NCBI GenBank assembly: GCA_045650745.1
Contig: JAZRRN010000048.1
Location: forward strand, 5,896 to 69,895
Length of the DNA stretch: 64,000 nucleotides
Direction: 5' to 3'
Origin: Candidatus Caccovivens sp.
GTDB taxonomy: Bacteria; Bacillota; Clostridia; Christensenellales; UBA1242
The translations under genes and the position numbers were made by a program. The notes beneath the pieces were generated by a model. The model made no database searches. It was given only the letters and a program-made list of their open reading frames with translations, and was not told the DNA's origin. Within the stretch, counting starts at the first letter, position 1. Every line of letters starts with the position of its first letter. This document shows, piece after piece, positions 1 to 29,739 of the stretch.

Positions 1-671
1 AAAGTAAATGGTTTTGCTGGAGAATATTCCTTGTCCATTTTTTCAAGCAAAGCATTTTCTGTTTCTTCTTTTACGACGACATTTTGCGAAAATTTGTTTT
101 CTATCTCCAACTCTTCCAACAATGTTATGATTCTGACAAAGGATTCTCCCAATTTGACAGATTCCCCTTCCACATCACCATTTAAGAAATGTCCTCTACT
201 TTTGATAATATTATGCAAAGCAAGGTATAAAAATCTGATATCCTCTGCAGGTTTTTCAAGCAAATCTTTTCTCAAATGGAAAATGGTAGGGTATTTCTTA
301 TAATACTCTTTATCTGTAAATTTTTCGCCATTTACCCCAGTTTGGAACAAACTATCTTTTCCGTTGTTCAAGCAAATGTTTTTGTCTTCCTGATGCAAGG
401 AACTTTCTTTCAATCTTATAAAAAAGTTTTCATCAACTTTTGCAATTTCTTTGGCAAAAATTTCTTGAAGCCATTGGACCATAAGTTTCTTTCTTTGCCA
501 TCTTCTTCTTGCACCTCTCTTAACCCTTCTATCCTGGGCTACGCTTGCTTCGGGAAACAATGAAACTCCCCACAAATCCTGTCCTTTTGCCCTTTGCAAT
601 TCATAACTTTCATTGGTCACCGCCCAACCAACACTAGAAGTTCCAATATCCAATCCTAAAAAATACTTCAT
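1..671 (-). CDS. cas9: Cas9 (type II CRISPR endonuclease), N-terminal 223 codons; the gene continues beyond the left edge of the window
   Basis: Not in the supplied ORF track because there is no stop in the window. The reverse complement of 671..1 is one open frame starting at ATG (669-671): MKYFLGLDIGTSSVGWAVTNESYELQRAKGQDLWGVSLFPEASVAQDRRVKRGARRRWQRKKLMVQWLQEIFAKEIAKVDENFFIRLKES...KKYPTIFHLRKDLLEKPAEDIRFLYLALHNIIKSRGHFLNGDVEG... This contains the RuvC-I motif (DIGTxSVGWA), the Arg-rich bridge helix, and YPTI(F/Y)HLRK / LYLAL..IIK.RGHF motifs colinear with SpCas9-type (II-A-like) proteins. An SD GGAGGA is at 689-684. Confidence 0.9.
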   Translation of the reverse strand, partial: MKYFLGLDIGTSSVGWAVTNESYELQRAKGQDLWGVSLFPEASVAQDRRVKRGARRRWQRKKLMVQWLQEIFAKEIAKVDENFFIRLKESSLHQEDKNICLNNGKDSLFQTGVNGEKFTDKEYYKKYPTIFHLRKDLLEKPAEDIRFLYLALHNIIKSRGHFLNGDVEGESVKLGESFVRIITLLEELEIENKFSQNVVVKEETENALLEKMDKEYSPAKPFT

Positions 672-676
672 TTTAT

Positions 677-705
677 TTGACATCCTCCATTTATTGTGAT
701 ATACT
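677..705 (+). promoter_or_regulatory. Near-consensus sigma-A promoter driving the putative tracrRNA
   Basis: TTGACA (677-682), 17-nt spacer, TATACT (700-705), with TG at 697-698 (extended -10). It overlaps the cas9 SD and 5' UTR on the opposite strand. Predicted TSS is about 712. Confidence 0.55.
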
Positions 706-740
706 TCAAGTAGAATAACATAACGAGTTCAAATAAATTT

Positions 741-769
741 ATTCTAACAATGTCCACATCGTGTGGTAA
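741..769 (-). promoter_or_regulatory. Candidate cas9 promoter A, inside the tracrRNA gene on the antisense strand
   Basis: Minus strand: TTACCA (769-764), 17 nt, TAGAAT (746-741) preceded by TGt (extended -10). The region is AT-rich, so this could be a chance match. Confidence 0.3.
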
Positions 770-772
770 ATG

Positions 773-797
773 ATGAGTCTTCGGACTCATTTTTTTA
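773..797 (+). terminator. Rho-independent terminator (UUCG tetraloop hairpin plus T7)
   Basis: ATGAGTC (773-779), TTCG loop, GACTCAT (784-790), then a T run to 796. On the minus strand no T-run follows the hairpin, so it is unidirectional. Confidence 0.75.
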
Positions 798-838
798 TTT
801 AATACACCCGCAACATTTTTACTACTTCGATCAATTTC

Positions 839-867
839 AGTATAACACATATGATACAAAGTTCCAA
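839..867 (-). promoter_or_regulatory. Candidate cas9 promoter B, distal, giving a leader of about 160 nt antisense to the tracrRNA
   Basis: Minus strand: TTGGAA (867-862), 17 nt, TATACT (844-839) preceded by TGt (extended -10). Confidence 0.4.
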
Positions 868-940
868 AAAATTTACACGATTTTTATCAATTTTACAAAA
901 TGTTACAAAATTATTTTTTGCTGTTTTTATAATTTTTTGT

Positions 941-969
941 TTGCAAATTTTGGCAAAATTTCTTAAAAT
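941..969 (+). promoter_or_regulatory. Candidate fba promoter
   Basis: TTGCAA (941-946), 17 nt, TAAAAT (964-969). It lies about 33 nt upstream of the fba ATG. Confidence 0.45.
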
Positions 970-1001
970 AACAACAGAAAACAAAATATGGTGGTGTAAA
1001 A

Positions 1002-1922
1002 ATGTTGGCAAACACAAAACAAGTTTTTGAAAAAGCAATCAACGGCAGCTATGCTGTTGGAGCGTTCAATTTTGTAAATATGGAAATCTTGCAAGCAATC
1101 TTGGAAGCAGCCCAAGAAGAAAAAAGCCCTGTCATTATCCAATGCAGCACTGGCGCAATCAAGTATGCTGGCGAAGATTATCTCAAAGGCATGGTGCTTT
1201 CTGCAACAAAAAATATTTCCGTGCCTGTCGTTTGGAATTTGGATCACGGAAAAACCTTTGAAGATTGTGCAAAAGCGATTGAATTGGGATTTACAAATGT
1301 TATGATTGATGCATCTTCGCTCCCATACGAAGAAAATGTTGCCCTCACAAAAAAAGTGGTTGATTTTGCTCACAGCAAAGGTGTGACAGTCGAAGCAGAA
1401 CTTGGCGTGCTTGCCGGTGTTGAAGATGATACACACAACGACAGTCAATGTTACACAAATCCAGACCAAGCAATTGATTTTATAAACAAAACAAACTGCG
1501 ACAGTCTTGCAATTGCAATCGGCACAAGCCACGGTTTGCACAAATTTGCTGGCGAAGCAAAACTTAGATTAGACATTTTGCAAGATTTATCAAAAAGATT
1601 GCCAAACTATCCATTTGTGCTTCATGGCGCAAGTTCGATTCCAGAGCAATATGTAACCCTTGCAAACGAAAACGGTGCAGCCATAAAAAATGCAAAAGGT
1701 GTGCCAGAAGAAATGTTGAAAGAGGCCTGCCGCCTCAACATTTGCAAAGTCAATGTCGACAGCGATTTGCGAATTGGTTTTGCTGCCGGCATAAGAGAAT
1801 GCTTAAATCAAAACCCAAGTGATGTTGACATGAGACATTATCTCACCAACGGCAAAAAATATGTCAAACAACTTGTCAAAGCCAAAATGCAATCAGTGTT
1901 TGGCAGCAGCAACAAAGCATAA
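1002..1922 (+). CDS. fba: Class II fructose-1,6-bisphosphate aldolase
   Basis: 306-aa ORF: MLANTKQVFEKAINGSYAVGAFNFVNMEILQAILEAAQEEKSPVIIQCSTG...NLDHGKTFE...AIAIGTSHG..LHGASS. These are the typical FbaA/class II aldolase motifs. A hairpin terminator follows. Confidence 0.95.
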   Translation: MLANTKQVFEKAINGSYAVGAFNFVNMEILQAILEAAQEEKSPVIIQCSTGAIKYAGEDYLKGMVLSATKNISVPVVWNLDHGKTFEDCAKAIELGFTNVMIDASSLPYEENVALTKKVVDFAHSKGVTVEAELGVLAGVEDDTHNDSQCYTNPDQAIDFINKTNCDSLAIAIGTSHGLHKFAGEAKLRLDILQDLSKRLPNYPFVLHGASSIPEQYVTLANENGAAIKNAKGVPEEMLKEACRLNICKVNVDSDLRIGFAAGIRECLNQNPSDVDMRHYLTNGKKYVKQLVKAKMQSVFGSSNKA

Positions 1923-1951
1923 AAAAAGAGTGTTTTTACACTCTTTTTTTT
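1921..1951. terminator. Bidirectional hairpin terminator between convergent fba and the collagen-like gene
   Basis: A7-GAGTG (1928-1932)-TTTTTA-CACTC (1939-1943)-T8. Confidence 0.75.
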
Positions 1952-1964
1952 AATTGTTTTGTTT

Positions 1965-4900
1965 TTAGCCAACAATTGTCAAACATTGTCCAAGCAATGC
2001 CGCTTGCTCTTCAGTGAAATCAGGGTTTCCTGATTGGGTGTTTTTGAAGGCAATCATCACATATCTAGTGTTTGCTTGAAGTGTGTGAGGAGTTGACAAC
2101 CAAGCTCCTGCACATGCCGCCTTTTGTTCTGCTGTCGCAGTCTCTTGTCTAGCATTAGGGAAACTCAAGGTTTGCTTAGACAGCACAGCACTTGAAAATT
2201 CCATCACTGCAAATTCCAAATTTGTAGAACCAAAAACTTCTTCCAAATTTTCAACAAATGCAAGTGTTTCGCCACCATTTACTGCAAGCACAGCAGTGAT
2301 GCAAGTTGCACGACCTGTCACTGTTGCCGCTGCAGGAGTAAATGCTGCACCCGCATAGCCTGGAGGTGCATATTCAGTGTTGAAAGTCATGTCTGAAATG
2401 TTTTCGACAATTTCCAATTCCTCTCCATAATAAGTTGCAACAGTTGGTGCTTCAGGTTCGACTGGCACTTCTGGTTCTTCAGGGATTTCTGGTTCTGCAA
2501 ATGTTACACAACTATTCAACAAAGCCAAATCTTCTGCAGAAAAATTTGCACTGCTGTCTGTTTCGTTTCTAAACAAAATCATAATGTATTGTGTTGCAGA
2601 ATTCAAAACATAATCCCCATCAACCCAACTTCCAGCAGTTGCACTGTTTGTGAAAGTTGAGGAGTCCATAGGAATACCTGCAAATTCATAAATAGTATAT
2701 TTCAATTGCACAGATGTTTTTCCTTGAACAAGTGTCAATTTTCTATTTGTTGCGTCAACCTTCAAAACTTGTGATTGTGAAGCAGCTCTGCCTGCTGTGT
2801 CTGTATAGGTCAACTGATTTCCACCAATTGACTTGCCAGCTGTGTATTCAACTTCTGCAAAATCTTCAACAATTGTCAATGTTTTGCCATTGAATGTTGT
2901 TGTTGGGATTGATGGATCAACTGGTGTTTCACCTTGTTCAGGATCTCCACCCTCACCTGGCTCTTCAGGTGTTGTGGTTGTTTCTGTCAATGCCAAGCAT
3001 TGTGCGAGCACTGCAACTTGATCTTCTGTAAAGTCAACAGAGCTATCACCATTTTTGAATGCAATAATCACATATTTTGTGTTTGCTTGCAATCTGTGTG
3101 CTGTTGTCAACCAAGCCTTGCCAACTGCAGCAGCCGAAACACTCTCTGTTGTGCTCAATGTCGCCATTGAAAGCGGAGCAGCAGAAAATTCGAGCACCGC
3201 AAATGACAAATTGGTTGAGCCAAACACTTCAGCCAAATTGTCAACAAATGCAAGTGTTTCGCCACCATTTACTGCAAGCACTTTTGTCATGCCTACAGCA
3301 CGACCTTTTGTTGCAGGAAAATCGCCACTTGCTGTGCCGGCAACACTATATCCGGCAGTGAAGTCAATGTCAGCAATCTCATCAACAACAGTCATATCTT
3401 TTTCTACTCTGCTAGATTGACCAGTGCCAGGCTCAACCACAAATTTTACTGTTGTTTCATCTTCGCCAGGTGTTGGATCTGTTGGTGTTTCGCCGCCTTC
3501 ACCTGGTTGTTCGCCAGAAGCATCACCAAAGTTTCCAACTTTGTTCCAGTTTCCAGATGTTTTCAAATAAATATCAAAATTTGCTGTGTTGAGATAAAAA
3601 TCTCCATCTTCGCCCAATGTTGACAAAGGTGCCCCTTCGCCAGAATGCCATTCTGCCCCTGAAACTGTTGTTTCTGGATAAATATCACTCTTTGTTGGAG
3701 CAAGTTTTCTGTTTTGAGCAAAGTCAAAATCTATGTCATATTCTGATGCAAATCTGCAAGCATCTTCAAACCAAGTTTTTCCTGCACCGAGTTCCGAACC
3801 TGTATAGAATTGCCATTCGTGTCCAAACAAAATGTAAGAAGAAATCGAATTTGCATAACTTGCACTTGTGTATCTTGCAACAAGTTCGTCATAAACATTG
3901 TCTTCTGTTGGCTTGTTGTATGTGTTTGCTGAAGAAAAATCTGACTTAAACCAATCTGTGCGAAGGTCAGTTGTCAAAAACACTAAGCCATTTTCGTAAT
4001 CAGTCACATGGTCGTTTGAATACATATATTGCATCAATTCTGTGTCAAAATAATATGAAAGTCTGCTGTCGTCTGCTGACAAGAAGCCGAGAGCCCCACA
4101 ATTTGCATCTCTCATACCTCTCAAAGCTTCCAAACTTCCTGCAAATGTGTGAAGTCTTGGGATTCTGTCAATGTTGAGATATGATCCTGTGATTCTTACC
4201 ACATTGTCAACAAAACTGTTCCAAGCATTTTTTCCTTGGTCATATGTAGAACTTCCAAATTGTGCACTGCTGCTTGTCGCATGCAAACCAATCTTAAGCC
4301 AATCTTTTGCGGCAAGAAACTCTGCTGCAAATTTGTTTGATACTCCTGAAATTGCATCGTTGTAAACATACAAACTAAATTTTGCACCATATTGTTCGTT
4401 CAATCCTTTGAGCCAAGCAAAGAATGGTTCGTCATACAAGCTTGTGTATGTTGCGGCTTTGTTTTTCAAGTTTTGAAAACAGTAAGTCACATCATCAAAA
4501 GAAATATGCATAAATTCTGCTTGGCTTGCTATGGGAGAGTCAGTGCCGTCAGCACCATCGTTTCCGTCTTTGCCATCAGCACCTTTGATGTTTCCAATCT
4601 TTGTCCAACTGCCAGATGTCTTTTGATAAATATCATAATTTACGGTGTTGAGATAGAAGTCTCCATCTGCTCCCAAGGTGTCACTTGGCACAACTGCACC
4701 ACTGTGCCATACTGAGCCATCTTTTCCAGCAGGGCCTTCTGGACCTTGTGGACCAGTTTCTCCAGTTTCACCCTTTTCGCCTTCTGGACCTTGTTCACCC
4801 TCTGGGCCTTGTGGACCTTCAGGACCTTGTGGGCCAGTTTCGCCTTCACCATCTTCGCCATGAAGGTTTGAAATCACAGCCCAGCCACTTTCTCCTCTAA

Positions 4901-16675: not shown

Positions 16676-19600
16676 TTATTCTGCCTCAAAAACCTTTGCA
16701 AGTCCATACATTGATGCATACAAATTGTATGAGTTTGAAGATTCATCAGCGTTTGGTCTGATGTAAACAATGTTGCAATAATAGTTTGAATCTGTGGCAA
16801 GAGTAATTCTTCTTGTGATGATTGTCTTGATTTCGCCACCTTCCAATTCTACTTCACCACCTGTAAGATTTCCAGTTGATGAAACTTTCAATGTGCTTGA
16901 CGATTCTTCCTTGCCTTCGTTTGAAACCAAGTCATAAACATGCACTGTAGCTGAAATTGTAGAATCAGTCGATTCAACCGATTGTTCCATAACACCAACA
17001 TTCAAACCAACAACTGCACCTACGCCAGAGTCAATATCTGATGCATAGACATAAATAGATTGATTTGCAACAACATTGAAGTAGTTTCTGTTTCCGGTTG
17101 TTGCAGAAAGTGCAAACGAACCATTGTCAACAATGCAACCAACCAAACCACCAATGCCGGTTTCGTCCATTCTGTGTCCATAAAGGTTGAGTTTGCCCAT
17201 TTCAAGCACAATGTCCTTAAACACAACACGACCAGTTTTGTTGTTGATTGTGCCAACAATTCCACCTACATATTGGAATCCGGTAAATTCGCCAGAAACT
17301 TTGATGTTTGAAATTTCAGCAACTTCGTTGATTACGCCTGCAAAACCACCAAGGTTTTGAATTCCGTTTTGAGTACTTTGTGTGCTGACACTGATTGATT
17401 TTGAAATTGTCACATCGCTGACACTTCCACCACTGATCAATCCAGCAAAACCACCAATACCTTCAGCAGTAAACACTTGCTTGATGTTTGTAAATGCTTG
17501 ATCACTTCCGTGAACATTAACATTCTTCACAGTTCCTCTAGATTCGCCGGTAACAAAACCACCATATCCATAGGCACTGATGATCATGCTGTCATCAACC
17601 AAAACATCAATCTTTTCTGCTGTTGCACCACTGTCGATATATCCAAAGACAAGCCCAGCAGTATCTGCATAAACAGAAACCACTTCGTCAACTTTGATGT
17701 TGTAGATATAACCTCTTCCACTCAAAACGCCAACCAAAGATCCTGCGTAAGAGTATCTGCCCATATCTTCGCCATCAACAAATGCCGATCCACCAATGTT
17801 CCAGTTTCTTACAATAGCTCCCACTTGAGAGTAAAGATTTTGAATTTTATAATTTCCAACAGCAACACCGATGGCACCACCAACAATGTTGTTTCCTTCA
17901 ACATAAACTGCATCTGCACTGTCTCTGACAATGTCAACATTGACGATTGTTCCACCATCAAGTCTTCCTGTAAGAGCACCAACTGAATTTGCGTTTGCAA
18001 ATGAAACGCCCAATGGTTCGTAAGTAAAGTTCATCAAAGTTCCAACAGCGTCTGTCAAACCTGATCTTCCCACTTCTGCAAAAAGACCAGCATAGTTTAC
18101 AGATTCGCTGTCAACGAGTGTTACACCTGAAATCTTCATAAAGTTTCCTTCAAGGTAACCAACAAACTTTGTCTTAAACAATTGACTGTTTTCTGTGTAA
18201 CCTTCGTAAGTCACATCTGAAATCAAACGATAATAAGAATAGTTGAATCCAGCATTTGTGTTTTCTCTTGAGATATAAGTTTCCATTGTCTTGTAGTCAT
18301 TGATAAGGATTGGGTTGTAAACCGAACCCAAAGGTTGACTTGAAAGAGCATAAATGTAAACATATCTTGCAGAAGTTGCACCCTTGTCATCAACAATTGT
18401 TTCGATGCGATCCAATTGTCTTCTTGAATATGCAATGATGTTTGCAGAAACAAGTTCCAATCTGCCAGCATTGAATGTCGCAGAATTGAAGTTTGAATAA
18501 TCGGTGGTGTTGTTATTAAAGAACCAAACCGAATTGATATCTCTTCCTTCAACATAAACATAGTTTTTAAAGTTTTCCATGTTGCCAAATTCTGTACAAG
18601 ACAAAGGTTTGAGTCCTTCTGAATCTTCAAGGGCAATCTCCCCAATATTTTCGTTGAGCCCACTGTCTTGCAAATAATAACAGTCTTCAAGACTTCCTTG
18701 AATAGATCCCTTATAGTTTGTCCTTGCAAAACCATAGTTTGAAGTTTGGTCATTTTCCATAATGCAAGTTGAGAAGCATCTTGCAATATTTCCACCGTTT
18801 TCAAATACAAAGCCTGATGCATAAGTTCCGCTTTGCTTCAATTGAATGTTTGAATAACAATCTGCAACAGTGCCTTCGTTTGAATAAATAAATCCAGCAA
18901 GGCTGTTGCTTGATCTGATTTCGTTTTCAGATCGTTTGTTATAATACATACTGTCTGCACTTGGAGTTCCACTTACATAAGAAGTGAAAATTCTTCCTGA
19001 ATTTGTGTTTGTCACAACAAATCCTGCGGTGTATTCGGCAGTAGTTGTTGTTTCATTTCGCAAGCTTGCGCCCATATAATAAGAACTTGCAATTGTTCCG
19101 CTGTTTTCACCAACAAAACCAGCCAAGTTTACATTACTAAAGATGCTTACCTTGCTTCTTGAGTTTGTGATATAGCCATTGTTTTTGCCGACTAAACCAG
19201 CAACATAAGCAGAAGAGGCTTTTTCCGAACATACAACAGAAAGTGTTGAGTTGTTTGAAGCCTCAACCGAGCAGTTTGTGATGATGCCTTCGTTGCTTGC
19301 AGTCAACAACCCTACATCAAATGATCCTGCACCAGTTTTGAAAATTGTGTCACTTGTCATTCTGACTGTAACATTTTGCAAAATTGCATCACTTTCATTT
19401 GTTGCAAACACACCAATTTGTGTTGCTGAGCCAAAATCATAAGTGCCTGCAAATTGCAAAGAATAGCCATTTCCGTCAAGTCCAGCAATTCTTGCTGTAA
19501 GTGGAACAAATTGTTCTACATCATTGATTGCCGCATATTCCATGCTTGGCAAAACAATGTCGTTGAGCAAGATATACCACTCGCCATCTGCCATCTTTTC

Positions 19601-22600
19601 GATCAAATCGTTGTAGTCCTCAATTGGGATAGGACTGTCTTGTGTGCTTTGATCATGCACATCAAATTCGAAAACAGTATAAACTCTTTCAGCACCATCT
19701 CTTGTTGCGCTGTAAGTATAAACACCGTTTCTCATTGTGTAATAAGAATCCATTGAGAATGAATAAACATCACTTGTTTTTGAATTGTAAACTCTAAGTG
19801 GAGTTACAGTGTAACCAGCAATTTGATAATAGTCAGTTCTAATTTGAGAATCGCCTGACAAAACTGTGTCCTCGCCATTCATATAAACTGTCCATGTGAC
19901 ATTGCTTGACATTTCACCAACAAATGTGTCAACTTCGTTGCTTACGATTGGGTTTGATTTGTCATATTCAAGGAAGCTTCTGATTGAAAGTTGAAGTTCG
20001 TAAGGATTTCCGATTGCTGTTGAGATAACGCCATCAACCATGCCTCTTACAAGGTCGAGATAAACGCCTTCTTCATACACATAGTTAAACACATATTCCA
20101 TTACATACAAACGGATAGAATCTTCGCTTCTTACGGCTTCGCCATTGACAATCTTTTCGCCGATTGTCTTGATCATAATTTCTTTTCCAATTCCACCATC
20201 ATAAACAATGTTTTCTGATGTAACCGTCAAAACATATTTTGCACCAACTTTGTTGATTGAAACAATTTGACTTGCATCAGAAGGTTGTCCATTTGCGTCC
20301 AAGATTTGGATTTCAATTTGATCTGCTGTGTAACCATAATAGTTTAATGTCAAATCATAAGAAAGACCACGGGCAACATAATAATATCCACCAGCATCTT
20401 GCTTGTCGTCAAAAACAAGTTCGGCATAACTGCCAAGTTTTGTTGTCAAGTAAACTGGATAAGATTCAGCAAATTCGCCTCTATTTCCATAAGTTACAGA
20501 AACATTAAATCCAACAGCCACACCATCAGAAACATTCTTTGATGGCATGTTGTACATAATATAAACTTTTCCAACATAAGAAACTGAAACTGTGTTCAAG
20601 AACGAAATCATTTCGTCGTATGTGAAGCTAAATTTGCCATCTTTTTGACTTCCAAATGTGTCAACTCTGACAAATTCCAATTCGCTGCCAGCTTCTTGCT
20701 TTTCATAAACAAATGTAAACAATGCTTTTGCTGCATCTTTGCTTGAATTTTGTGACATATTTTCGATTGTAAATGTGTTGAACACTGCTTCAACAGGGTC
20801 AACAAACACTTCAATCAAACCGTTTTGTCCAGGAACAATGATGTCATCAACCACTGAAACATCATTGATGTTTGAATAGTTGTCTGCTGTGATATAGTTT
20901 ACGCCTGCTTCATCAAGGTTGAGTTCGACTGTTGCAAACACACCATCATAAAGCTCAGTCGCATAGAAGAAGATCACATATTTTCCAAAAATTCCTGTTT
21001 CAAATCTGTTTACAAACGCATCACTTGCAGAATTTACTCTAAGAGAATAGTCAAAAACATTAACCATTCCTGCTTTTCTTGCAAGAGTAACATTAAACAA
21101 ATCATCTGTAAGTGAAAGTGTGTTTACAAATGCTTGCCACTCTGCCTCAGAGTCACAATCATTGATGTTGTCAGGCATTCTTGATTGAACAAGCCTGTCT
21201 TCATCACCTTCTCTATAGAAGATTTCGTAGAACAAATATTCTTCATCATTTGTTGAGTCAACTGTCACTGTGTCAGTGTAAGGTTCGTTTGTTTTGATTG
21301 AAATTTCAACACTGTCTGGTCTGATCGCAGATGCTGTATCTTTGTAAACAACAGACAAATCAATTTCAGAAGCAGACAATTCGTAAACAAACAAATATGA
21401 TTGCTCGCCAATTGTCACAGAAACTTGCAACATAGGCACAAGTGTGTAAGAGTCAACAGCACCTTCAATCGCTTCTGCACTCTTATAGAAGATGATTGTT
21501 TGCTTGTTTACTTGCACTGATGAGAATGTTTTTACATTTTCGTCACAATCTGCAAACAATTGAGAGTTTCTTGTCAAATTGTATGCAACATTTTTGTATG
21601 ACAAAACCCCTTCTTTTGTGATCGAATATTTGTCATTTTCGCCAAGATATGTCGCAGTGTCATCAAGTGTGTATGTTGGCACCAAATAAATGTTTGTGTT
21701 TGAATTTCCATAAACTGAAACTTGACTTCCGTTTACAACATTCATTCCACTTGCGTTTCTGCTTGTGTAGAATACTGATCCTGCAACATCTTTGTCGAAG
21801 TAATTTGTAATATAAATATAAACTGTTTTAGATTCTACTCTATTCAAAATGCTTGTCAATGTCAAAGTTGCCAAACCAACGCCATGCGCGGTAATGTTTC
21901 CATGAATGTCAACTGACAACAATCCTGCTTTTTCTGCAGTCGAAATGTTTACATCTTGACTTGTGATTTTGATTGGATAGAAATCAGAGTTTGGAGAAAG
22001 TGTGTTGAGTGCCAAAACTTCATCTTGCACCACTCCGGTTGTCGAACCACTTACACGGTTGTCAACACCAAAATAATACATAAAGTAAACACTTACACCT
22101 TCAACCGAGCCGTTTGTCATAAGGTAAGGATTTCCAGCATCTTCACCAAGACCAACTTCTTTTGTTTCGAAGCACACTGTTTTGAAGATTTCATAAACAT
22201 TGCCCACTTTCTTGAGAGAAACAAGATCTCCATAATAGTGAGTTGTTGAAGTGTCTGAAGTAGAACCCAACGCTGTTGATGGGTTTACAATTCTCTTCAA
22301 ATACGAAACTGCTCTAAATGCCGAACCATAGCTTCTTCTTGTTTCGCTAGCATTTCCAACCATTCCATAAACGCCTGCAGCATCAAATGCAACTTGCTTA
22401 AATTTGATGAGCATTGCAGAATAAAGAGTGTTTCTGCCATCGTCAACTGCTTCAATATAGTTTCCAGAACCAAAGTTTACACGATATCTGTCATCAACTG
22501 ATGCGTCAACAAAGTCATAACCACAAATTGTTCCAACATAGTCATATCCTCTGACAAAGATACGAGAGTTGTTTGTCCAAATGTCAATTCTGTCAACATT

Positions 22601-25600
22601 TGCAGTGTGAGCATAACCTACCACACCACCAACATAATCTGTGTATCCTTTTTCAGCTGCTGTTTTTGAAACAATGTCTTGTGTTGAAATTTCGCCACCA
22701 ACAAGCATGCTCTTGATTGCGATGCCACTTTCAACTGTTTCTTCTGCCATAATTGGCATTGTTGTTTCAGCCAAATCTTGGTTGTAAATATAAGCAACCA
22801 TAGATTTTTGGTGAGTTCTTCTGCTGTAGTTGTTGTATGCCACAGCACCAGCAACACCACCCAAATAGATGTTTGAATAATCATTTTGCACTGTTTCGCC
22901 AGACACTTTGATAAGAGTGTATGCCGAATAAGCAGAATAACCATAAAGTTTGAGTTCTGTTGATGTTGTGCGTTCTACAAGGCCTGCAGTTGCACCAACA
23001 ACACCACCAGCAAACAAGTTTGTCGAATCTGCTTCAATTGTCAAATAATCGTTGAAATATGCAAGATTTTTTGCATTTTGTCCAGCAAATTTTGCACCAC
23101 TTTCATACAAAGTGAAATCTTGCAAAATTTGTCCGTAGTTTGCTGCAGCAACCGAACCAAAATAAACATTTGTGCTTGCTACTGTTTCAATGCTTGATGC
23201 AGCAACAATTCTTGTGCCAAGGTTTCTCACAATACCTTTGTTGATTGCAACAGCAAGGCCAACATAGGCACTTCTTTGAAGATCGAGATCAACCTTTCCT
23301 GTGATCAAAATGTTTTCAATCATTGGAGTTTCAATTTCGATAATGTTTCCTGTCACACCATCATAAACAATTTCGTTGAGTTGTGCAAACAAGCCAGCAT
23401 ATTGAACGCCATCGACTGTTTCCACAAAGTTTGCATTGTTTACAAAAAGGTTTGTGATTGAAGCTTGAGCAGTTGTGCCTGTAAGCGAACCACTAAAACC
23501 AACCAACACTTTGTTGCCTTCTCTTTCAAGGATACCAATTGGTGTTGCACCTGAAATTGCAGACATATCAATCACTGTGTTGAGCTCGTAATGACTCTTC
23601 AATGTTGTTTCATTTGCATTGATTGCCAAAATATCTTCTGGTTTTTCAAGCAAATAAGGATTGTTTCTAGATCCGTTTCTATAATGAACATCAATGCAAA
23701 GAGGTTTCTTTGTCAAAGAAGTATAGTTGCTGCCCCATTCTGCTGGATAAACATAAATTCTTCCTGTCAAAGACTCTTCAATGTTTACAATGTTTGCAAT
23801 GTTGTTTCTATAGAAGTTTTCACAAGAAATAAAAATTGTATAAGTGCCCTTTGATTGTTCTGAATAATCCACAACAATCTCAACCATATCGGTATAAGGG
23901 TTTCCGTTTGTCAATTCAAAGTCAACTCTCAATCTCTTGTTTGTCGCATCTGTTGGATATGTGTAAACACCCAAAGTATAAGACAATTTGTCGTTTGTAA
24001 AGTTGAGTTCGTCTATTGCTGTTGAAAGTGATATGCTTTCAATTGATTTGTATGGAGATGAAACAATCTTTGCATCATATCTCTTTGTCGAATTTCTTTG
24101 TCTGAGATTTGTGCTCAACACAAATGAATACGAACGCATATCTGTTGCAAAATATGTCAAAGTGTCAAGGTCAAAATAACCAAAACCACCAATGCTTCCA
24201 CCGAGATAATAGATGTTTGAGAATTCTACGGTATACAACGCCATAAGCGAGCCACCCTCATCTCTTTCTTCATAGATAAAATCTTCAGAACTAAACATCA
24301 TTCCGGTTTCAAATGTCACATAAACCATACGAGTTTCTTCGTGTGTTGTGCCATCTTGAATCCATTGTTTTGTGATTTCAACAGCTGTTGCTGTTTTGTC
24401 AAATGGTTGACCTTTGCTGTTTTGCACATAATAGTATACAAATTTTTGATCATATTCTTCTTCAACCAATTCAGAATAATAATCTGTGCTTACAGTTGTA
24501 TAGTTGTAGACAATGCTGCCATCTGGCAATTCAGAGTCAAAAGAGTTGTACATGTTTGGAATAGCTTTCTTGTCAAATTCGTATTTATAGAAGTTTGTTG
24601 ATTGTCGGTTGTTTGCCACAACATCAAACTTGACCGAACTGTCTTCTGTGCTTACTCCCGAACCATAATAAACAGTGTTGTTCAAGGCATAATCTTCGCC
24701 ATTCTTCAAATAATATTCGTCAACAAGTGAATAAGAACTAATCCTTGCATAATATGTAAGTTCTGTGTTCACCACCTTAAAATCATCTACTGTATTTCCC
24801 ATCAAGGTAAATGTGACATCTGTCACACCATTTTTAACAGTTGCAATTCTGTAAAAATCGTTTACTTTTGCCACTGTTGCAATGTTTACATCACCAGGGA
24901 TATATTTTACGCCTTCACCTGCCAAGTTTGCTGCAATCTTGATAAAGGCATAATTGTTGAAAGTGATTTCATCTTTTGTAGATGGGTTCAACACTTCAAT
25001 GTTTAACACATTTTCATATTCTGCTTCATATTTTGAATAAGAATAGTTTGAAACTGCCTCATTTCCTTCACTTGCCAAAGCAAAGGTTGTTGTTTCTGCT
25101 TTCAAAGTTTTTACAACTTCAAAATTTACATATCTTGACAAACCGTTGTCAAGGAAGATTTTGTAAACACCTTTACCAACTTTCTTTGGCACAACCTTCA
25201 TGTTAAGGAAAAATCCGTCAACACCTTCAACATAAGGATTTTCGTTGTCTGCAATGATTGTCACGACATCTTCGCCACCATCATGCTCGTATGAAATCCC
25301 TTGAAATCTGTGTTCTGCATAAAGTTGTTGATCAAACGCAACTTCTTCTGCGTCATAATCCACTTTCAAATATCTGTTTTCATCACCTGTGTAAGCATGA
25401 GCAATATTCAAATAGCTTGCACCTTCAACAACCGAGAAGTCAATTGCCAATGTCAATTCTTCTGCGTCTTGAATGATGTCGCTCACAAGGTGAATAACAA
25501 GTGTTGTTTTGTCTGTTTTTGGCGCTTTGTCAACACCTCTAACAAAAAATGGTCTATTCAAATCAGTGTAGAGCTTTGCGTTGCCGTTTACAACATTCAC

Positions 25601-26998
25601 TCTGTCACTTGTGATAATTTCCAAATAAGTTTCATCAAATTCAAACCAAATTCCATCGTAGTTTGCTGGAGAGTTGAGTCCTGACAAAACATTTACCCAA
25701 AGTTCGTTCCAGCCATATTCATCAAGTTTGTAACTGTTGTAAACCACCATTGGTTCTGGTTCGGAAGTTCCGTTTACTGTCACTTCAATTGGTGCAATTT
25801 TTACATCAAGTCTAAACCTTCTCAATGCGTTGACACTGTCATCTTGCACACCCTTTGCAACATTATAATAGATTTCAACATCAAAATAGTCTGTTGTTTG
25901 TGTTTGTGAGTTTTGTGAAACCAACCAATAGAAAGTTTCAAATTCGCCTTCATCAGCAACTTCCAAAGGTTCGATATTCACAAAGCCATTTTCAAGCAAA
26001 GGTTTGTAAGTGATGATTGATTCTTCTTCCAATTTGATGTTTGTTTCGATTTTCAAAACAAATTGTGTCATGTTTATATTGTTTGGCACGATTGAAATTG
26101 TGTTGTCTGTAAGTGGTTGATAGTCCACATCGCCAGTCACCGTGTCAACATATCCACCAGACACATCAATTTTGAGACTTGGCAACACATAAACATCTGA
26201 CAAACAATAAACAATTTTGTCATATGCAATGTTCCCTACCGAACATTCATAAACAGTAAGCATATTAAACTTGCTCACAAGGTCAACTTCTGCAAATGCA
26301 GATCCGTTTACACTTGCAAAAAGTTTGTTTTCGCCCGTATCTTCATCAGCAACAAGTTTCATTTTGTCAAAAGCAACAATGCTTCCATCAATGATAGATC
26401 CTGTTCCGTTTTTGAAGATCGCTTTGTCTGATTCAAGGTCAATTGAATCAAGATAGAATGTTGCATCCAAATCTGCGTTTGGTGTGAAATAATAATAGTT
26501 CAATTTGTCATAAGTCACAAAGTCACTATCAAATTCGACCAAAGCAGAAGTTGGTTGAAACATTGTGTCATTTGAAACATAGTTGATGTCATCTTTTGCG
26601 TCCATAGATTTTGCATATTGTTCTACAAAAATTGACACCGTGCAAGTCTTCATTCCATCAAAAGTTGAAACTGTAAGAGTTCCTTCGCCACCATTTGTTG
26701 CTGTGACAGTCACCCTTATTCTCGACTTGTCCATTTGTTGTTGTGTGTAAGTAAAGATTGAAGAATCTCTGTTTGAATCTTCTTCAATATGCACATAGTT
26801 GTCAAAACCATTTTGATATCCTTCGATTGTGAAGATAATATCCTCAGTTTGTCCAACTTCCAAGTTTACTGATTGACGATTGGCTGTGATGTGAATCTTG
26901 CTGTAGTCTACTCCACAACCAACAAAAAAGAAACCTGCAAACAAAAATGCAAATACACTACACAATGATATAATTATATTTCTTAAAGTTTTTGTCAT
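16676..26998 (-). CDS. Giant surface lipoprotein (3440 aa) built from beta-sandwich/Ig-like arrays alternating with GLUG-type beta-helix repeat modules
   Basis: Uninterrupted 10.3-kb ORF. N-terminus MTKTLRNIIISLCSVFAFLFAGFFFVGCG gives a signal peptide plus lipobox. There are many repeats of about 20-25 aa of the form (A/G)G(F/L/I)(V/A)G.N.G.I..(S/C)(Y/F), for example YVAGLVGKNNGYITNS, LAGFVGENSGTIASSY, AGFVVTNTNSGRIFTSY, AGFIYSNEGTVADCY, SGFVFENGGNIARCF. Modules open with NP(I/Y)xI...DGNGYSL-type entries. Confidence 0.9.
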   Translation of the reverse strand: MTKTLRNIIISLCSVFAFLFAGFFFVGCGVDYSKIHITANRQSVNLEVGQTEDIIFTIEGYQNGFDNYVHIEEDSNRDSSIFTYTQQQMDKSRIRVTVTATNGGEGTLTVSTFDGMKTCTVSIFVEQYAKSMDAKDDINYVSNDTMFQPTSALVEFDSDFVTYDKLNYYYFTPNADLDATFYLDSIDLESDKAIFKNGTGSIIDGSIVAFDKMKLVADEDTGENKLFASVNGSAFAEVDLVSKFNMLTVYECSVGNIAYDKIVYCLSDVYVLPSLKIDVSGGYVDTVTGDVDYQPLTDNTISIVPNNINMTQFVLKIETNIKLEEESIITYKPLLENGFVNIEPLEVADEGEFETFYWLVSQNSQTQTTDYFDVEIYYNVAKGVQDDSVNALRRFRLDVKIAPIEVTVNGTSEPEPMVVYNSYKLDEYGWNELWVNVLSGLNSPANYDGIWFEFDETYLEIITSDRVNVVNGNAKLYTDLNRPFFVRGVDKAPKTDKTTLVIHLVSDIIQDAEELTLAIDFSVVEGASYLNIAHAYTGDENRYLKVDYDAEEVAFDQQLYAEHRFQGISYEHDGGEDVVTIIADNENPYVEGVDGFFLNMKVVPKKVGKGVYKIFLDNGLSRYVNFEVVKTLKAETTTFALASEGNEAVSNYSYSKYEAEYENVLNIEVLNPSTKDEITFNNYAFIKIAANLAGEGVKYIPGDVNIATVAKVNDFYRIATVKNGVTDVTFTLMGNTVDDFKVVNTELTYYARISSYSLVDEYYLKNGEDYALNNTVYYGSGVSTEDSSVKFDVVANNRQSTNFYKYEFDKKAIPNMYNSFDSELPDGSIVYNYTTVSTDYYSELVEEEYDQKFVYYYVQNSKGQPFDKTATAVEITKQWIQDGTTHEETRMVYVTFETGMMFSSEDFIYEERDEGGSLMALYTVEFSNIYYLGGSIGGFGYFDLDTLTYFATDMRSYSFVLSTNLRQRNSTKRYDAKIVSSPYKSIESISLSTAIDELNFTNDKLSYTLGVYTYPTDATNKRLRVDFELTNGNPYTDMVEIVVDYSEQSKGTYTIFISCENFYRNNIANIVNIEESLTGRIYVYPAEWGSNYTSLTKKPLCIDVHYRNGSRNNPYLLEKPEDILAINANETTLKSHYELNTVIDMSAISGATPIGILEREGNKVLVGFSGSLTGTTAQASITNLFVNNANFVETVDGVQYAGLFAQLNEIVYDGVTGNIIEIETPMIENILITGKVDLDLQRSAYVGLAVAINKGIVRNLGTRIVAASSIETVASTNVYFGSVAAANYGQILQDFTLYESGAKFAGQNAKNLAYFNDYLTIEADSTNLFAGGVVGATAGLVERTTSTELKLYGYSAYSAYTLIKVSGETVQNDYSNIYLGGVAGAVAYNNYSRRTHQKSMVAYIYNQDLAETTMPIMAEETVESGIAIKSMLVGGEISTQDIVSKTAAEKGYTDYVGGVVGYAHTANVDRIDIWTNNSRIFVRGYDYVGTICGYDFVDASVDDRYRVNFGSGNYIEAVDDGRNTLYSAMLIKFKQVAFDAAGVYGMVGNASETRRSYGSAFRAVSYLKRIVNPSTALGSTSDTSTTHYYGDLVSLKKVGNVYEIFKTVCFETKEVGLGEDAGNPYLMTNGSVEGVSVYFMYYFGVDNRVSGSTTGVVQDEVLALNTLSPNSDFYPIKITSQDVNISTAEKAGLLSVDIHGNITAHGVGLATLTLTSILNRVESKTVYIYITNYFDKDVAGSVFYTSRNASGMNVVNGSQVSVYGNSNTNIYLVPTYTLDDTATYLGENDKYSITKEGVLSYKNVAYNLTRNSQLFADCDENVKTFSSVQVNKQTIIFYKSAEAIEGAVDSYTLVPMLQVSVTIGEQSYLFVYELSASEIDLSVVYKDTASAIRPDSVEISIKTNEPYTDTVTVDSTNDEEYLFYEIFYREGDEDRLVQSRMPDNINDCDSEAEWQAFVNTLSLTDDLFNVTLARKAGMVNVFDYSLRVNSASDAFVNRFETGIFGKYVIFFYATELYDGVFATVELNLDEAGVNYITADNYSNINDVSVVDDIIVPGQNGLIEVFVDPVEAVFNTFTIENMSQNSSKDAAKALFTFVYEKQEAGSELEFVRVDTFGSQKDGKFSFTYDEMISFLNTVSVSYVGKVYIMYNMPSKNVSDGVAVGFNVSVTYGNRGEFAESYPVYLTTKLGSYAELVFDDKQDAGGYYYVARGLSYDLTLNYYGYTADQIEIQILDANGQPSDASQIVSINKVGAKYVLTVTSENIVYDGGIGKEIMIKTIGEKIVNGEAVRSEDSIRLYVMEYVFNYVYEEGVYLDLVRGMVDGVISTAIGNPYELQLSIRSFLEYDKSNPIVSNEVDTFVGEMSSNVTWTVYMNGEDTVLSGDSQIRTDYYQIAGYTVTPLRVYNSKTSDVYSFSMDSYYTMRNGVYTYSATRDGAERVYTVFEFDVHDQSTQDSPIPIEDYNDLIEKMADGEWYILLNDIVLPSMEYAAINDVEQFVPLTARIAGLDGNGYSLQFAGTYDFGSATQIGVFATNESDAILQNVTVRMTSDTIFKTGAGSFDVGLLTASNEGIITNCSVEASNNSTLSVVCSEKASSAYVAGLVGKNNGYITNSRSKVSIFSNVNLAGFVGENSGTIASSYYMGASLRNETTTTAEYTAGFVVTNTNSGRIFTSYVSGTPSADSMYYNKRSENEIRSSNSLAGFIYSNEGTVADCYSNIQLKQSGTYASGFVFENGGNIARCFSTCIMENDQTSNYGFARTNYKGSIQGSLEDCYYLQDSGLNENIGEIALEDSEGLKPLSCTEFGNMENFKNYVYVEGRDINSVWFFNNNTTDYSNFNSATFNAGRLELVSANIIAYSRRQLDRIETIVDDKGATSARYVYIYALSSQPLGSVYNPILINDYKTMETYISRENTNAGFNYSYYRLISDVTYEGYTENSQLFKTKFVGYLEGNFMKISGVTLVDSESVNYAGLFAEVGRSGLTDAVGTLMNFTYEPLGVSFANANSVGALTGRLDGGTIVNVDIVRDSADAVYVEGNNIVGGAIGVAVGNYKIQNLYSQVGAIVRNWNIGGSAFVDGEDMGRYSYAGSLVGVLSGRGYIYNIKVDEVVSVYADTAGLVFGYIDSGATAEKIDVLVDDSMIISAYGYGGFVTGESRGTVKNVNVHGSDQAFTNIKQVFTAEGIGGFAGLISGGSVSDVTISKSISVSTQSTQNGIQNLGGFAGVINEVAEISNIKVSGEFTGFQYVGGIVGTINNKTGRVVFKDIVLEMGKLNLYGHRMDETGIGGLVGCIVDNGSFALSATTGNRNYFNVVANQSIYVYASDIDSGVGAVVGLNVGVMEQSVESTDSTISATVHVYDLVSNEGKEESSSTLKVSSTGNLTGGEVELEGGEIKTIITRRITLATDSNYYCNIVYIRPNADESSNSYNLYASMYGLAKVFEAE
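18771..19200 (-). repeat. Example block of GLUG-like repeats (coding) inside the 3440-aa gene
   Basis: Translates to AYVAGLVGKNNGYITNSRSKVSIFSNVNLAGFVGENSGTIASSYY...AGFVVTNTNSGRIFTSYVSG...LAGFIYSNEGTVADCYSNI...ASGFVFENGGNIARCFSTC. Confidence 0.7.
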
Positions 26999-27039: not shown

Positions 27040-29739
27040 TTATCTACCTTCAAAGAGTTTTCTTACATAAGGTTGAGCAATAACTTGAACTGTCGTTCTG
27101 GCTGTTGCGCTTGTGATCAAGAAGCATTGTCCAACGCCGGCAGTAACGATTGTGTTTTGTTCTTCTTCGTTGATACCACCAGATTTTTCATACAACGACA
27201 CAAGGTCGGATATATCTGCCGGAGCAAGTGAGAAGATCATAGAATATTGACAAGCGTTGATAACGGCTGTTGATTGTCTTCTGATTTCTTCAGTACCAAC
27301 GAAGTCGGCAATGTTTTGTGTAATGATAAGCAACATACCACCGTATTTTCTAATACGCTTAGCCATCTGTGCCATAAAGTCCAAAGCTACTGGGTATTTA
27401 GGGTTAATAAAGATGTGAGCTTCGTCAACGGCAACGATAATTTTTCTGTTTTTGCGATATTTTTTGTTGAAGTCTTTGTTGTTGATAACTTCGTTGTTGA
27501 GGTATCTAAATACCAAAAGCATCTGAGCGTTTGTGATTTGTCCGTTGTTTCCAGCAACCAATGATTGGAAGTTGAAAGTAACGAAGTTTTCGTTTGTTTC
27601 AATAGAAGTTGGGCCATTCCACAACGCACTGTTTCTTCCACCTGTCGCAAACTTCTTGATGTAAGTTTCAACAGTCATCAAACTTCTCAAAGAGAATTCG
27701 TCTTTCGCTTCTTTAATTCTCTTTACAATCAAAGCATACAAGTCGTCAAAGGTTGGATAATCAGTTGGCTTCAATCTAGCCAAGTTTGAAGTTTCACCAA
27801 TGTCTTTTTCTTTGTACATATCAATAATCAAAGAGTTGAGTGTTTCGAAAGCGTCTGTGTTGATACCTTCCAAAATAACTCTAAAGAATTGTTCCAAAAA
27901 CTGCAAGTGTTGTGCAAACGAGTCGTCGACTTTCTTGTCAAGTTGTTTCTTCTTTTGGATAGGTCTTCCAAAATCGTCAAATTCTTCTTCCTCTTCTTTT
28001 TCTTCGTCTTCAGACGCTTCCAAAGATGAAATAACGTGGAATGGATTCAAAATTCCGTGAAGTGATGATCCAACGTCGATAAACTTTCCACCAAGACTCA
28101 TTGTCAAATCTTTATATTCGTTTTCAGGGTCGAGAATAAAGATCTTACAGTTGTCGGCTGACAAGTTTGTCAACAAAGTTTTTGTAGCATAAGATTTTCC
28201 GGAACCAGATTTTCCAATAACCATCATGTTTGAGTTAACTCTGCTTCTATCTCTCTTGAAGAAGTCAACAAACACTGGATATTCGTTGTCTCCCAAATAA
28301 ATTCCGTTTGGATCTTGCAACGCATTTGAAATAAATGGGAATGTCGCAGCAAGAGTTGTTGTTGGGATACCTCTGGCATTTTTTACCATTGCATCTCTTC
28401 TTGAAACGCCGGCAGAAACAAATCCATCAATTTGTCTTGCAAACAATTCAGAATATTTGAAGCCAGATTGTTTGAGCATCGCTCTAACATCTTTCTTTGC
28501 AGCATCTTCTGCAATGACATAAGTGTTTACGTTGTAAAGTTGTTCGTTGCTGTTTTTCAAACTTTGAAGCAAATCTTTCAATGTTGCCAAGTGAGTTTGA
28601 AGTTCGATTTGAGTAGAACTCTTTCCTGCTTTTTGCAACTTTGTTTCCATTTCCATGATACCACGGTCGATTTGCTTTTCAGATTCAAGTCTTCCAATCG
28701 GAGTAAACTTCATTACAACTCTAGTTCTGTCCAAAAGAAAAACTGGTGATCCCCAAGCATTTCCTACTTGCAAAGGATAGTCTGTCAAACTGAAACAACG
28801 ATAAGGTTGGTCATCAATAAAATATCTTGCGATGTTGAATTTGATTTTTTCTGGAGTCGCCCACTTCATATATTCTGACATTGGCATAACTTCCAAATCT
28901 CTTTCGTCAAATTCTTTTGTAAGGTTTGCCTTCAAGAAGACATACAAGTCATTTCCTTCAAGTTTGTGTGATGTGATTGGGTTGAGTGCTGCGCCCATTG
29001 CTTGGATCATACCTGAAGTGGTTGTATCCAAAATTTCCATGTCCTTGTCATAAACGACCATATAGAAGTGATCTTTGTAGACTTTTGATTGTCTGTTCAT
29101 AAATTCGTAAAGCGTAACTCTTTCTTCAAAGATCGGAGCACGGGCATCAATTTCGTCTTGTGAAATTTGTCCATCATATTGCATGTCATAAAGCACATCA
29201 TACTTTTGGTTTTCGCCATGAATGTATCTATCCAAAATCATTGGCTTGCTGATCTTGACAAGCGAACAAGTTTGATCTGGTGTCAATCTTCTGAATGCGT
29301 TGGCAAAAGCATTGATAACATTGTCTTGATAATATTCTGTCAACAAAGTGAAAAACATTGGTTCGATTTCAATAACTTGTGCATAGTATGGACCAAAGTT
29401 GATAAACTTGTCTTGATACACACCTTCGTATGCAATCATTTCGCCAACTGTTGATTTCTTCTTGGCACCATCTCCCTTGCTAAACTTTTTCTTTTGCACC
29501 GAATATTTCAGCAAGTGCACCAATGTGATATAGAAACGATCTTCATCGGCTGGCTTCAAATACATTGAGATTGCAACAATCAACCATGCAACACCAAGCC
29601 ATACGTGAAATGAGAAGTTTGCCAAAAACAAAACTACTGCCACGGCAATAAAAATAAGAGCCAAGATCAAGTCAAGCCCTGTGAAACCTCTCATAAATTC
29701 TGATTTAACTTTTGCTTTTTTTGGAATAACTCTAACCAT
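27040..29739 (-). CDS. VirB4/TraE/TrsE-family conjugation-type ATPase with an N-terminal VirB3-like two-TM segment
   Basis: 899 aa. Two TM helices (LILALIFIAVAVVLFLANF and VWLGVAWLIVAISMYL). Walker A MMVIGKSGSGKSY (about 28194-28217), DPENEY, Walker B KIIVAVDEAHIF (about 27412-27442), and ..ELFARQIDGFVSAG.. typical of Gram-positive VirB4 homologs. The stop is 41 nt upstream of the 3440-aa gene start, with no terminator between them. Confidence 0.8.
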   Translation of the reverse strand: MVRVIPKKAKVKSEFMRGFTGLDLILALIFIAVAVVLFLANFSFHVWLGVAWLIVAISMYLKPADEDRFYITLVHLLKYSVQKKKFSKGDGAKKKSTVGEMIAYEGVYQDKFINFGPYYAQVIEIEPMFFTLLTEYYQDNVINAFANAFRRLTPDQTCSLVKISKPMILDRYIHGENQKYDVLYDMQYDGQISQDEIDARAPIFEERVTLYEFMNRQSKVYKDHFYMVVYDKDMEILDTTTSGMIQAMGAALNPITSHKLEGNDLYVFLKANLTKEFDERDLEVMPMSEYMKWATPEKIKFNIARYFIDDQPYRCFSLTDYPLQVGNAWGSPVFLLDRTRVVMKFTPIGRLESEKQIDRGIMEMETKLQKAGKSSTQIELQTHLATLKDLLQSLKNSNEQLYNVNTYVIAEDAAKKDVRAMLKQSGFKYSELFARQIDGFVSAGVSRRDAMVKNARGIPTTTLAATFPFISNALQDPNGIYLGDNEYPVFVDFFKRDRSRVNSNMMVIGKSGSGKSYATKTLLTNLSADNCKIFILDPENEYKDLTMSLGGKFIDVGSSLHGILNPFHVISSLEASEDEEKEEEEEFDDFGRPIQKKKQLDKKVDDSFAQHLQFLEQFFRVILEGINTDAFETLNSLIIDMYKEKDIGETSNLARLKPTDYPTFDDLYALIVKRIKEAKDEFSLRSLMTVETYIKKFATGGRNSALWNGPTSIETNENFVTFNFQSLVAGNNGQITNAQMLLVFRYLNNEVINNKDFNKKYRKNRKIIVAVDEAHIFINPKYPVALDFMAQMAKRIRKYGGMLLIITQNIADFVGTEEIRRQSTAVINACQYSMIFSLAPADISDLVSLYEKSGGINEEEQNTIVTAGVGQCFLITSATARTTVQVIAQPYVRKLFEGR

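Follow-up and report, generated by a model that had tools for sequence, protein, structure and literature searches.

Positions 711-796 (+) of the window, by which we mean the whole stretch of 64 kb analysed here, very probably encode the tracrRNA of a CRISPR-Cas9 locus that is type II-A-like and has the start of its cas9 at 671, on the other strand. A tracrRNA is the small helper RNA needed by Cas9 to use CRISPR guides. The complementarity that identifies it here is to the repeats of related loci; for the window itself we infer the expression and processing of the RNA and the sequence of the repeat. The arrangement is the expected type II-A layout, and the Cas9 lineage, from gut Clostridia, is uncharacterised. 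The coordinates of the features are collected in Table 1.

Table 1. Features of the putative tracrRNA gene and of its surroundings (window coordinates).
Feature	Position	Strand	Basis or remark
-35 box, TTGACA	677-682	+	TTGAC(A/T), at the same spacing in all family loci
Promoter spacer, 17 nt	between -35 and -10	+	
Extended -10, TGaTATACT (TG 697-698, TATACT 700-705)	697-705	+	TGnTATA(C/A)T or a near variant in relatives
Whole anti-repeat, UAGAAUAACAUAACGAGUUCAAAU	711-734	+	
Anti-repeat, upper-stem part, UAGAAUAACAUAACG	711-725	+	pairs with repeat nt 8-22 (loci with identical anti-repeat)
tracrRNA bulge, 2 nt (AG)	726-727	+	cofold of repeat and tracrRNA
Anti-repeat, lower-stem part, UUCAAAU	728-734	+	pairs with repeat nt 1-7 (GUUUGAG)
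AU-rich conserved linker at the nexus position, AAAUUUAUUCUAACAAUGU	735-753	+	no convincing stem
Hairpin 1, CCACA (754-758)-UCG-UGUGG (762-766)	754-766	+	folding, family comparison
Terminator, AUGAGUC (773-779)-UUCG-GACUCAU (784-790), then U6 (791-796)	773-796	+	fold, covariation
cas9, 5' part	3-671	-	translation, Pfam Cas9-BH, match to FrCas9 (9JWK)
cas9 Shine-Dalgarno, GGAGGA, within the tracrRNA promoter spacer	683-688	-	sequence; GGAG-type block in 10 loci
Candidate cas9 promoter, TTGGAA-17-TGtTATACT	839-867 (867..839)	-	predicted; transcript would be antisense across the whole tracrRNA gene
Class II fructose-bisphosphate aldolase (fba), next gene	1002-1922		

The open reading frame that adjoins the proposed gene on the minus strand encodes the N-terminus of a Cas9. 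The window holds the first 223 codons, and the gene continues past the left window edge. The protein opens with MKYFLGLDIGTSSVGWAV... (MKYFLGLDIGTSSVGWAVTNESYELQRAKGQDLWGV... in a longer readout), contains the RuvC-I motif GLDIGTSSVGWAV and matches the Cas9 bridge helix of Pfam (Cas9-BH); of the solved structures, FrCas9 (9JWK) matches it best (E 1e-38). Many full-length Cas9 proteins of type II-A share ~50-63% identity with it, and searches of genome and metagenome contig collections returned relatives only, with identities of at most 68%. The tracrRNA unit is divergent from cas9, i.e. the two stand back-to-back with the -35 box 5 nt from the ATG, and the putative RNA is hence encoded adjoining the cas9 locus. 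The surroundings are chromosomal, as the window includes rpoB, rpoC, uvrA, uvrB and fba. Its RpoB is ~91% identical to MAG proteins, two of which are labelled 'Clostridia bacterium'. Two very large ORFs (3440 and 6445 aa), at 16676-26998 (-) and 44630-63967 (-), lie near a TraG/HerA-like ATPase (27040-29739); they had no Pfam match at E <= 1e-5, the 6445-aa ORF having been scanned over its first 4900 aa.

The promoter TTGACA-17-TGaTATACT, claimed in a preliminary description of this DNA, is where it was said to be: it agrees with the consensus at 11 of 12 positions, has the additional TG, and no other promoter-like site in the first 2 kb is as good. From the cas9 start to the next gene there is only one terminator-like site on the plus strand, the one at 773-796. 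The same description was right about the hairpin of this terminator and about the smaller CCACA/UGUGG hairpin before it, and counted one U too many in the U-run, which has six unless the last U of the stem is included to make seven. There is no ORF of any size between promoter and terminator, and the 86 nt of 711-796 are without a meaningful ORF. At the level of the sequence, the putative gene therefore has a promoter and an intrinsic terminator of its own, and both are kept in 10 loci. Transcription is predicted to start at 711-713. This agrees with the extent of the complementarity to the repeat, which in every locus ends 0-3 nt upstream of UAGAAU; for the same reason we rejected a longer anti-repeat extending into the promoter.

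Within the 64 kb, the element appears to be unique. The motif GAGUUCAAAU (725-734) occurs once, and the window contains no CRISPR array, no repeat and no second anti-repeat. A covariance model of the family matched the 64 kb at a single place, 711-796 (E 1.8e-10, 87.5 bits); as the ten sequences behind the model include the window's own, what this single match shows is the absence of a second copy. The exact 22-mer of the anti-repeat is absent from a collection of viral contigs, and full-text search found the repeat and anti-repeat strings in no paper.

The partner of the anti-repeat is seen in the related loci with visible arrays, whose repeats, GTTTGAG(T/A)GTTATGTTATTCTA..., are complementary to it. 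We predict that the repeat of the window locus also reads GTTTGAG(T/A)GTTATGTTATTCTA.... The repeat GTTTGAGTGTTATGTTATTCTATATATAACTAAAAC is found in L001, L028, L029, L031, L032 and the truncated L027, all of which have an anti-repeat identical to the window's, and also in L007, whose anti-repeat differs by one base; the repeats of L027 and L029 are incomplete, as the contigs end there. In a cofold with GTTTGAGTGTTATGTTATTCTATATATAACTAAAAC, the RNA of the window forms a 7-bp lower stem (GUUUGAG/UUCAAAU), a 2-nt bulge on the tracrRNA side (AG) and a 15-bp upper stem. Across the family, cofolding gives a lower stem of 7 bp, a tracrRNA bulge of 2-3 nt and an upper stem of 14-15 bp, so that the succession of lower stem, bulge and upper stem is obtained with the repeats of the family. 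The duplex of the window anti-repeat with GTTTGAGTGTTATGTTATTCTATATATAACTAAAAC has an energy of -21.9 kcal/mol, against -6.0 +/- 2.1 kcal/mol for 1000 shuffles of the repeat (best -15.1) and -8.9 kcal/mol for the SpCas9 repeat.

These repeats allow the repeat predicted in the preliminary description, GTTTGAACTCGTTATGTTATTCT, to be evaluated. It had been written as the perfect complement of the anti-repeat. The family repeat departs from it in one segment of 5 nt, in whose place it has 3 nt, and the duplex is thus bulged rather than perfect. Accordingly, the expected 20 or more complementary nucleotides exist as 22 paired positions, yet split 7 + 15 and with no continuous run of at least 20. 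The likeness drawn between the 3' end of the anti-repeat and the streptococcal junction holds, as ...GAGUUCAAAUAA resembles ...CAAGUUAAAAUAA. Two variants of the repeat are informative. L030 has a repeat ...AUGUUAUUUCU (...GATATGTTATTTCT) and a matching anti-repeat AGGAAUAACAU (AGGAAUAACAUUAACGCG), which on sequence grounds is co-variation between array and tracrRNA. In L034 and L035 the repeat is GTTTGAGAGTTATG..., with the change inside the bulge region. The combination of a repeat GUUUGAG... with a tracrRNA ...(G)AGUUCAAAU, i.e. a module of the FrCas9 type, is also found when the window RNA is taken with the family repeat.

The same unit of promoter, anti-repeat, hairpin and terminator is carried by nine other loci, in the same divergent place beside cas9, and their Cas9 N-termini are ~50-63% identical to the window's. 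Together with the Cas9 neighbour and with the pairing of the family repeats, these loci support the tracrRNA reading put forward in the preliminary description. The first scans gave L001 (an uncultured Catabacter MAG) and L007, with an almost identical unit directly upstream of cas9. The Cas9 of L007 then served as query to collect full-length relatives and their contigs, for a sample of ten complete copies of the unit, window included, and two copies cut at contig ends. The order of the elements is constant: cas9 ATG, 5-8 nt, TTGAC(A/T), a 17-nt spacer, the extended -10, 5-8 nt and the anti-repeat, followed by the linker AAAU(G/U)UAUUCUAA..., hairpin 1, the terminator hairpin and the U-run. 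The family consensus of the anti-repeat is (U/A)(A/G)GAAUAACAU(U)AACG(A/C)GUUCAAAU. The covariance model also weakly matches the anti-repeat sites of the more distant loci L009-L018, which had been located independently by shared repeat k-mers.

Eight of the loci (L027-L032, L034, L035) have the genes cas9-cas1-cas2-csn2 and are thus of type II-A; two of the eight hold a truncated copy of the unit only. The loci of the Catabacter type, L007 (3566-9356) and L001, have a 10-repeat array directly after cas9 and then cysS, and lack cas1, cas2 and csn2 within ~6 kb, unlike all other family loci. In several loci (L028 10240-10300, L031 10470-10505, L034 9430-9480) the array leader ends ...TTGAGG right before the first repeat. 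The leaders of the closer relatives have a conserved TATAGAATAAA ~45 nt upstream, possibly the promoter of the pre-crRNA.

The absence of cas1, cas2 and csn2 from L001 and L007 shows that loss of modules occurs in this family. One might then speculate that the window has a genuine tracrRNA gene in a CRISPR-Cas locus that is decayed or incomplete, so that the RNA is left without a working partner. Only 223 codons of cas9 are visible, and the protein search with this N-terminal fragment gave no 100% match. Yet, the reading frame of cas9 is uninterrupted as far as it can be seen and retains the RuvC-I and bridge-helix motifs, and neither promoter nor anti-repeat nor terminator is damaged or less conserved than in the complete loci. 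We thus regard decay as unlikely and retain the tracrRNA gene of a type II-A-like locus as the preferred reading.

The conservation of the unit argues for a tracrRNA too. Its first 37 nt (711-747) have 84-97% identity to the window across loci, the first 300 nt of cas9 have 62-67%, and the 3' hairpin region has 45-63% with its pairing kept. Judged from these alignments, the pattern of selection looks RNA-like. In the terminator helix, all 8 pairs of the model show compensatory changes among family members and 96% of the cells are paired; its covariation score was reached by none of 500 shuffles, and all slid controls were far lower. Hairpin 1 had to be assessed differently, by folding each sequence, since it is out of register in the MAFFT alignment and only 68% paired after realignment with the covariance model. 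These folds give seven different stem sequences in the family, each of 5-9 bp and each 17-20 nt past the lower stem. Hence, the RNA has a structured 3' tail, in which the terminator covaries and hairpin 1 refolds at the same place.

These observations also bear on a reading of 711-734 as a degenerate solitary CRISPR repeat, left behind by a former array, instead of an anti-repeat that is transcribed. The minus strand of this segment reads ATTTGAACTCGTTATGTTATTCTA, which resembles the family repeat without its last 14 nt. Such a remnant would hardly come with its own promoter and terminator, nor be followed by conserved and covarying hairpins. The insertion of 2-3 nt relative to the repeat is constant in every locus, as fits a functional bulge, and the distance to the cas9 ATG is fixed even in L027, L030 and L034, whose Cas9 proteins have diverged to ~41-52% identity with that of L007. 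We find the remnant extremely improbable and a transcribed anti-repeat the better account.

Is the conserved element read from the plus strand at all? It might instead be the 5' leader of the cas9 mRNA, on the minus strand, with an incidental promoter and terminator on the other. Part of the region must indeed be leader, as the Shine-Dalgarno sequence of cas9 lies inside the tracrRNA promoter, and there are promoter-like sites on the cas9 strand beyond the terminator. Yet, the U-run follows the terminator hairpin on the plus strand only, in 10/10 loci; TTGAC(A/T)-17-TGnTATAnT is kept at fixed spacing on that strand; the conserved 24-mer is complementary to the repeat RNA only if read from it; and the homologous RNA of FrCas9 was seen by RNA-seq in this orientation. 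A leader in place of a tracrRNA is thus highly improbable, and in any case a leader and a tracrRNA can coexist, one on each strand.

Certain features do count against the tracrRNA call. The anti-repeat is short, ~24 nt from the predicted start of transcription (that of FrCas9 has 22 nt). No relevant Rfam match was found in window positions 1-3000, even at E <= 10 with permissive filters, nor at gathering score in the whole window. A match to MicX below threshold was recorded further on, at 1793-1960 (-), with 33.9 bits for a gathering score of 75; it overlaps a bidirectional terminator (1921-1950) between fba and a 1084-aa collagen-repeat ORF, and is most likely mere terminator resemblance. 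Last, there is no clear nexus stem-loop of the SpCas9 type in the segment 735-753, which is conserved and AU-rich. The AU-rich nexus-like stem of the preliminary description (AAUAAA/UUUAUU) did not survive comparison: the alignment columns that form it do not vary, and the lower stem with the crRNA requires the 5' half of this stem. A candidate stem of 3 bp (737-739 with 749-751) is 70% paired, with one double change.

The linker has another pairing option. The sequence UAUUCUA at 741-747 is a copy of nt 16-22 of the repeat and can pair with 711-717. Over the 10 loci, 96% of the cells of this pairing are paired, with one double change, in L033, and its covariation was equalled by 21 of 500 shuffles. 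This repeat mimic may hold the free tracrRNA in a closed fold.

How would such a gene work? The near-consensus sigma-70 promoter (677-705) would start transcription at ~711-713, and the anti-repeat, which makes up the first 24 nt of the RNA, would pair with nt 1-22 of every pre-crRNA repeat. This would give a duplex with a lower stem of 7 bp, the 2-nt bulge of the tracrRNA and an upper stem of 15 bp, and the tail that binds Cas9 would consist of the AU-rich linker with hairpin 1 and the hairpin of the terminator. Processing of the duplex, which in characterised type II-A systems is the work of RNase III, would then yield the dual RNA that guides Cas9.

The proximity of the two genes has implications for the expression of cas9. 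In all loci the 17-nt spacer of the tracrRNA promoter holds the Shine-Dalgarno sequence of cas9 on the other strand, and a GGAG-type purine block stands directly beside the antisense -35 box in 10/10 loci. Since the Shine-Dalgarno sequence is inside the spacer, the promoter and leader of cas9 must overlap the tracrRNA gene in antisense. An internal antisense promoter for cas9 through TAGAAT (746..741, -) was considered and rejected, as the hexamer is lost in L033 (TGGAAT) and L034 (TAGATA). Beyond the terminator, promoter-like islands are present on the cas9 strand in L029/L031 (TTGTGA-18-TG(A/G)TATACT) and in L028/L032 (TGTTAAAAT), and these islands are preserved within pairs that have otherwise diverged. 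From the candidate promoter at 867..839 in the window, the cas9 leader would have ~160 nt and be complementary to the entire tracrRNA. One might go further and see in the tracrRNA and the cas9 mRNA leader an obligatory cis-antisense pair, a proposal we regard as rather doubtful at present. If it were true, every cas9 transcript would have a ~160-nt leader, perfectly complementary to the tracrRNA over its full length and including a repeat-like sequence. The levels of Cas9 and tracrRNA could then be coupled by promoter collision or by RNase III cleavage of an 86-bp duplex, or else the leader could yield a non-canonical crRNA. The head-to-head overlap of the tracrRNA promoter and the cas9 ribosome-binding site offers, in itself, a small case in which the coordination of Cas9 and tracrRNA expression could be studied.

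The overlap also leaves a trace in public annotation. Gene calls in L029 and L031 (4001-4057; P0122, P0123, also P0121) start Cas9 18 codons early, giving proteins of 1440-1441 aa instead of ~1422 by reading through the tracrRNA promoter and the anti-repeat. Gene callers thus extend the Cas9 start through the tracrRNA gene in some public records.

The putative gene provides a guide-RNA scaffold, of anti-repeat, bulge, an unusually AU-rich linker and two hairpins, for uncharacterised Cas9 proteins of ~1,400 residues. This group is from uncultured gut Clostridia and is related to FrCas9, an enzyme already used in genome editing. An sgRNA could be designed directly from the scaffold, as a spacer followed by GUUUGAGUGUUAUGUUAUUC-GAAA-GAAUAACAUAACGAGUUCAAAUAAAUUUAUUCUAACAAUGUCCACAUCGUGUGGUAAAUGAUGAGUCUUCGGACUCAUUUUUUU. 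L023 has the Cas9 N-terminus nearest to the window's (68%), yet a tracrRNA of a different type (...CATTCAAAATTACATATACAAGATTAAAATAAG), which lies ~290 nt upstream of cas9 at 1-120 (- strand), where the end of the contig truncates it. By its sequence, the guide module is therefore not predicted by the identity of the Cas9 N-terminus alone.

Among known systems, the short-form tracrRNA of S. pyogenes, reportedly described by Deltcheva et al. in 2011 and by Briner et al. in 2014, offers the general plan. Like this RNA gene, the window unit is placed upstream of cas9 and divergent from it, in a type II-A setting, and its modules are likewise upper stem, bulge, lower stem, linker, hairpins and terminator. 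It differs in having no nexus hairpin of the GGCUAGUCC type and a much shorter anti-repeat (~24 nt). The tracrRNA family of Rfam is RF02348, which we take to be built on streptococcal sequences; the window RNA would belong to the same functional class without being a member of that sequence family.

The long-form tracrRNA of S. pyogenes serves as a naturally occurring single guide and represses the promoter of cas9 (Workman et al., bioRxiv 10.1101/2020.05.21.102756). There is no candidate for a long form at the window locus, since only 5 nt separate the -35 box from the coding sequence of cas9 upstream of it. The resemblance is loose: in both cases the tracrRNA is intertwined with the promoter region of cas9, and a repeat mimic can pair with the RNA's own anti-repeat. 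In the window, however, the mimic follows the anti-repeat on its 3' side, corresponds to just 7 nt of the upper stem and comes without a spacer-like 5' extension, and the overlap is with the Shine-Dalgarno sequence and leader of cas9, not with a promoter target site.

By sequence, the closest characterised system is FrCas9, the type II-A enzyme of Faecalibaculum rodentium (Cui et al. 2022, PMC8931148; structures 9JWK/9JWN, PMC12926199), which is also the best solved-structure match of the family Cas9 (L007, E 7.6e-174). Its tracrRNA of 71 nt, which small-RNA-seq has confirmed, is encoded upstream of cas9 in the opposite orientation (PMC8931148). It reads AATTAACAAGATGAGTTCAAATCAGG... for a repeat GTTTGAGTGTCTTGTTAATTCGGAAGTATTTCAAAC (PMC8931148, Supplementary Tables 2-3), of which mature crRNAs retain ~20 nt (PMC8931148). 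The two systems differ in the upper stem (AAUUAACAAGAU in FrCas9, UAGAAUAACAUAAC in the window), in the sequence after the lower stem (a GC-rich CAGGCUCC...GAUCCG in FrCas9, the AU-rich AAAU(G/U)UAUUCUAA in the window family), in their 3' hairpins, which are unrelated in sequence, and in the 3' halves of their repeats, which are unlike. The lower stem of the FrCas9 pair was not recovered in a cofold of the whole molecules; paired by hand, it gives the same 7 bp, AG bulge and upper stem. In both systems the tracrRNA is upstream of cas9 and runs in the opposite direction, at most a few nt separate the start of the anti-repeat from the 5' end of the RNA, the lower stem and bulge carry the motif GAGUUCAAAU, and the repeat begins with GTTTGAGTGT.
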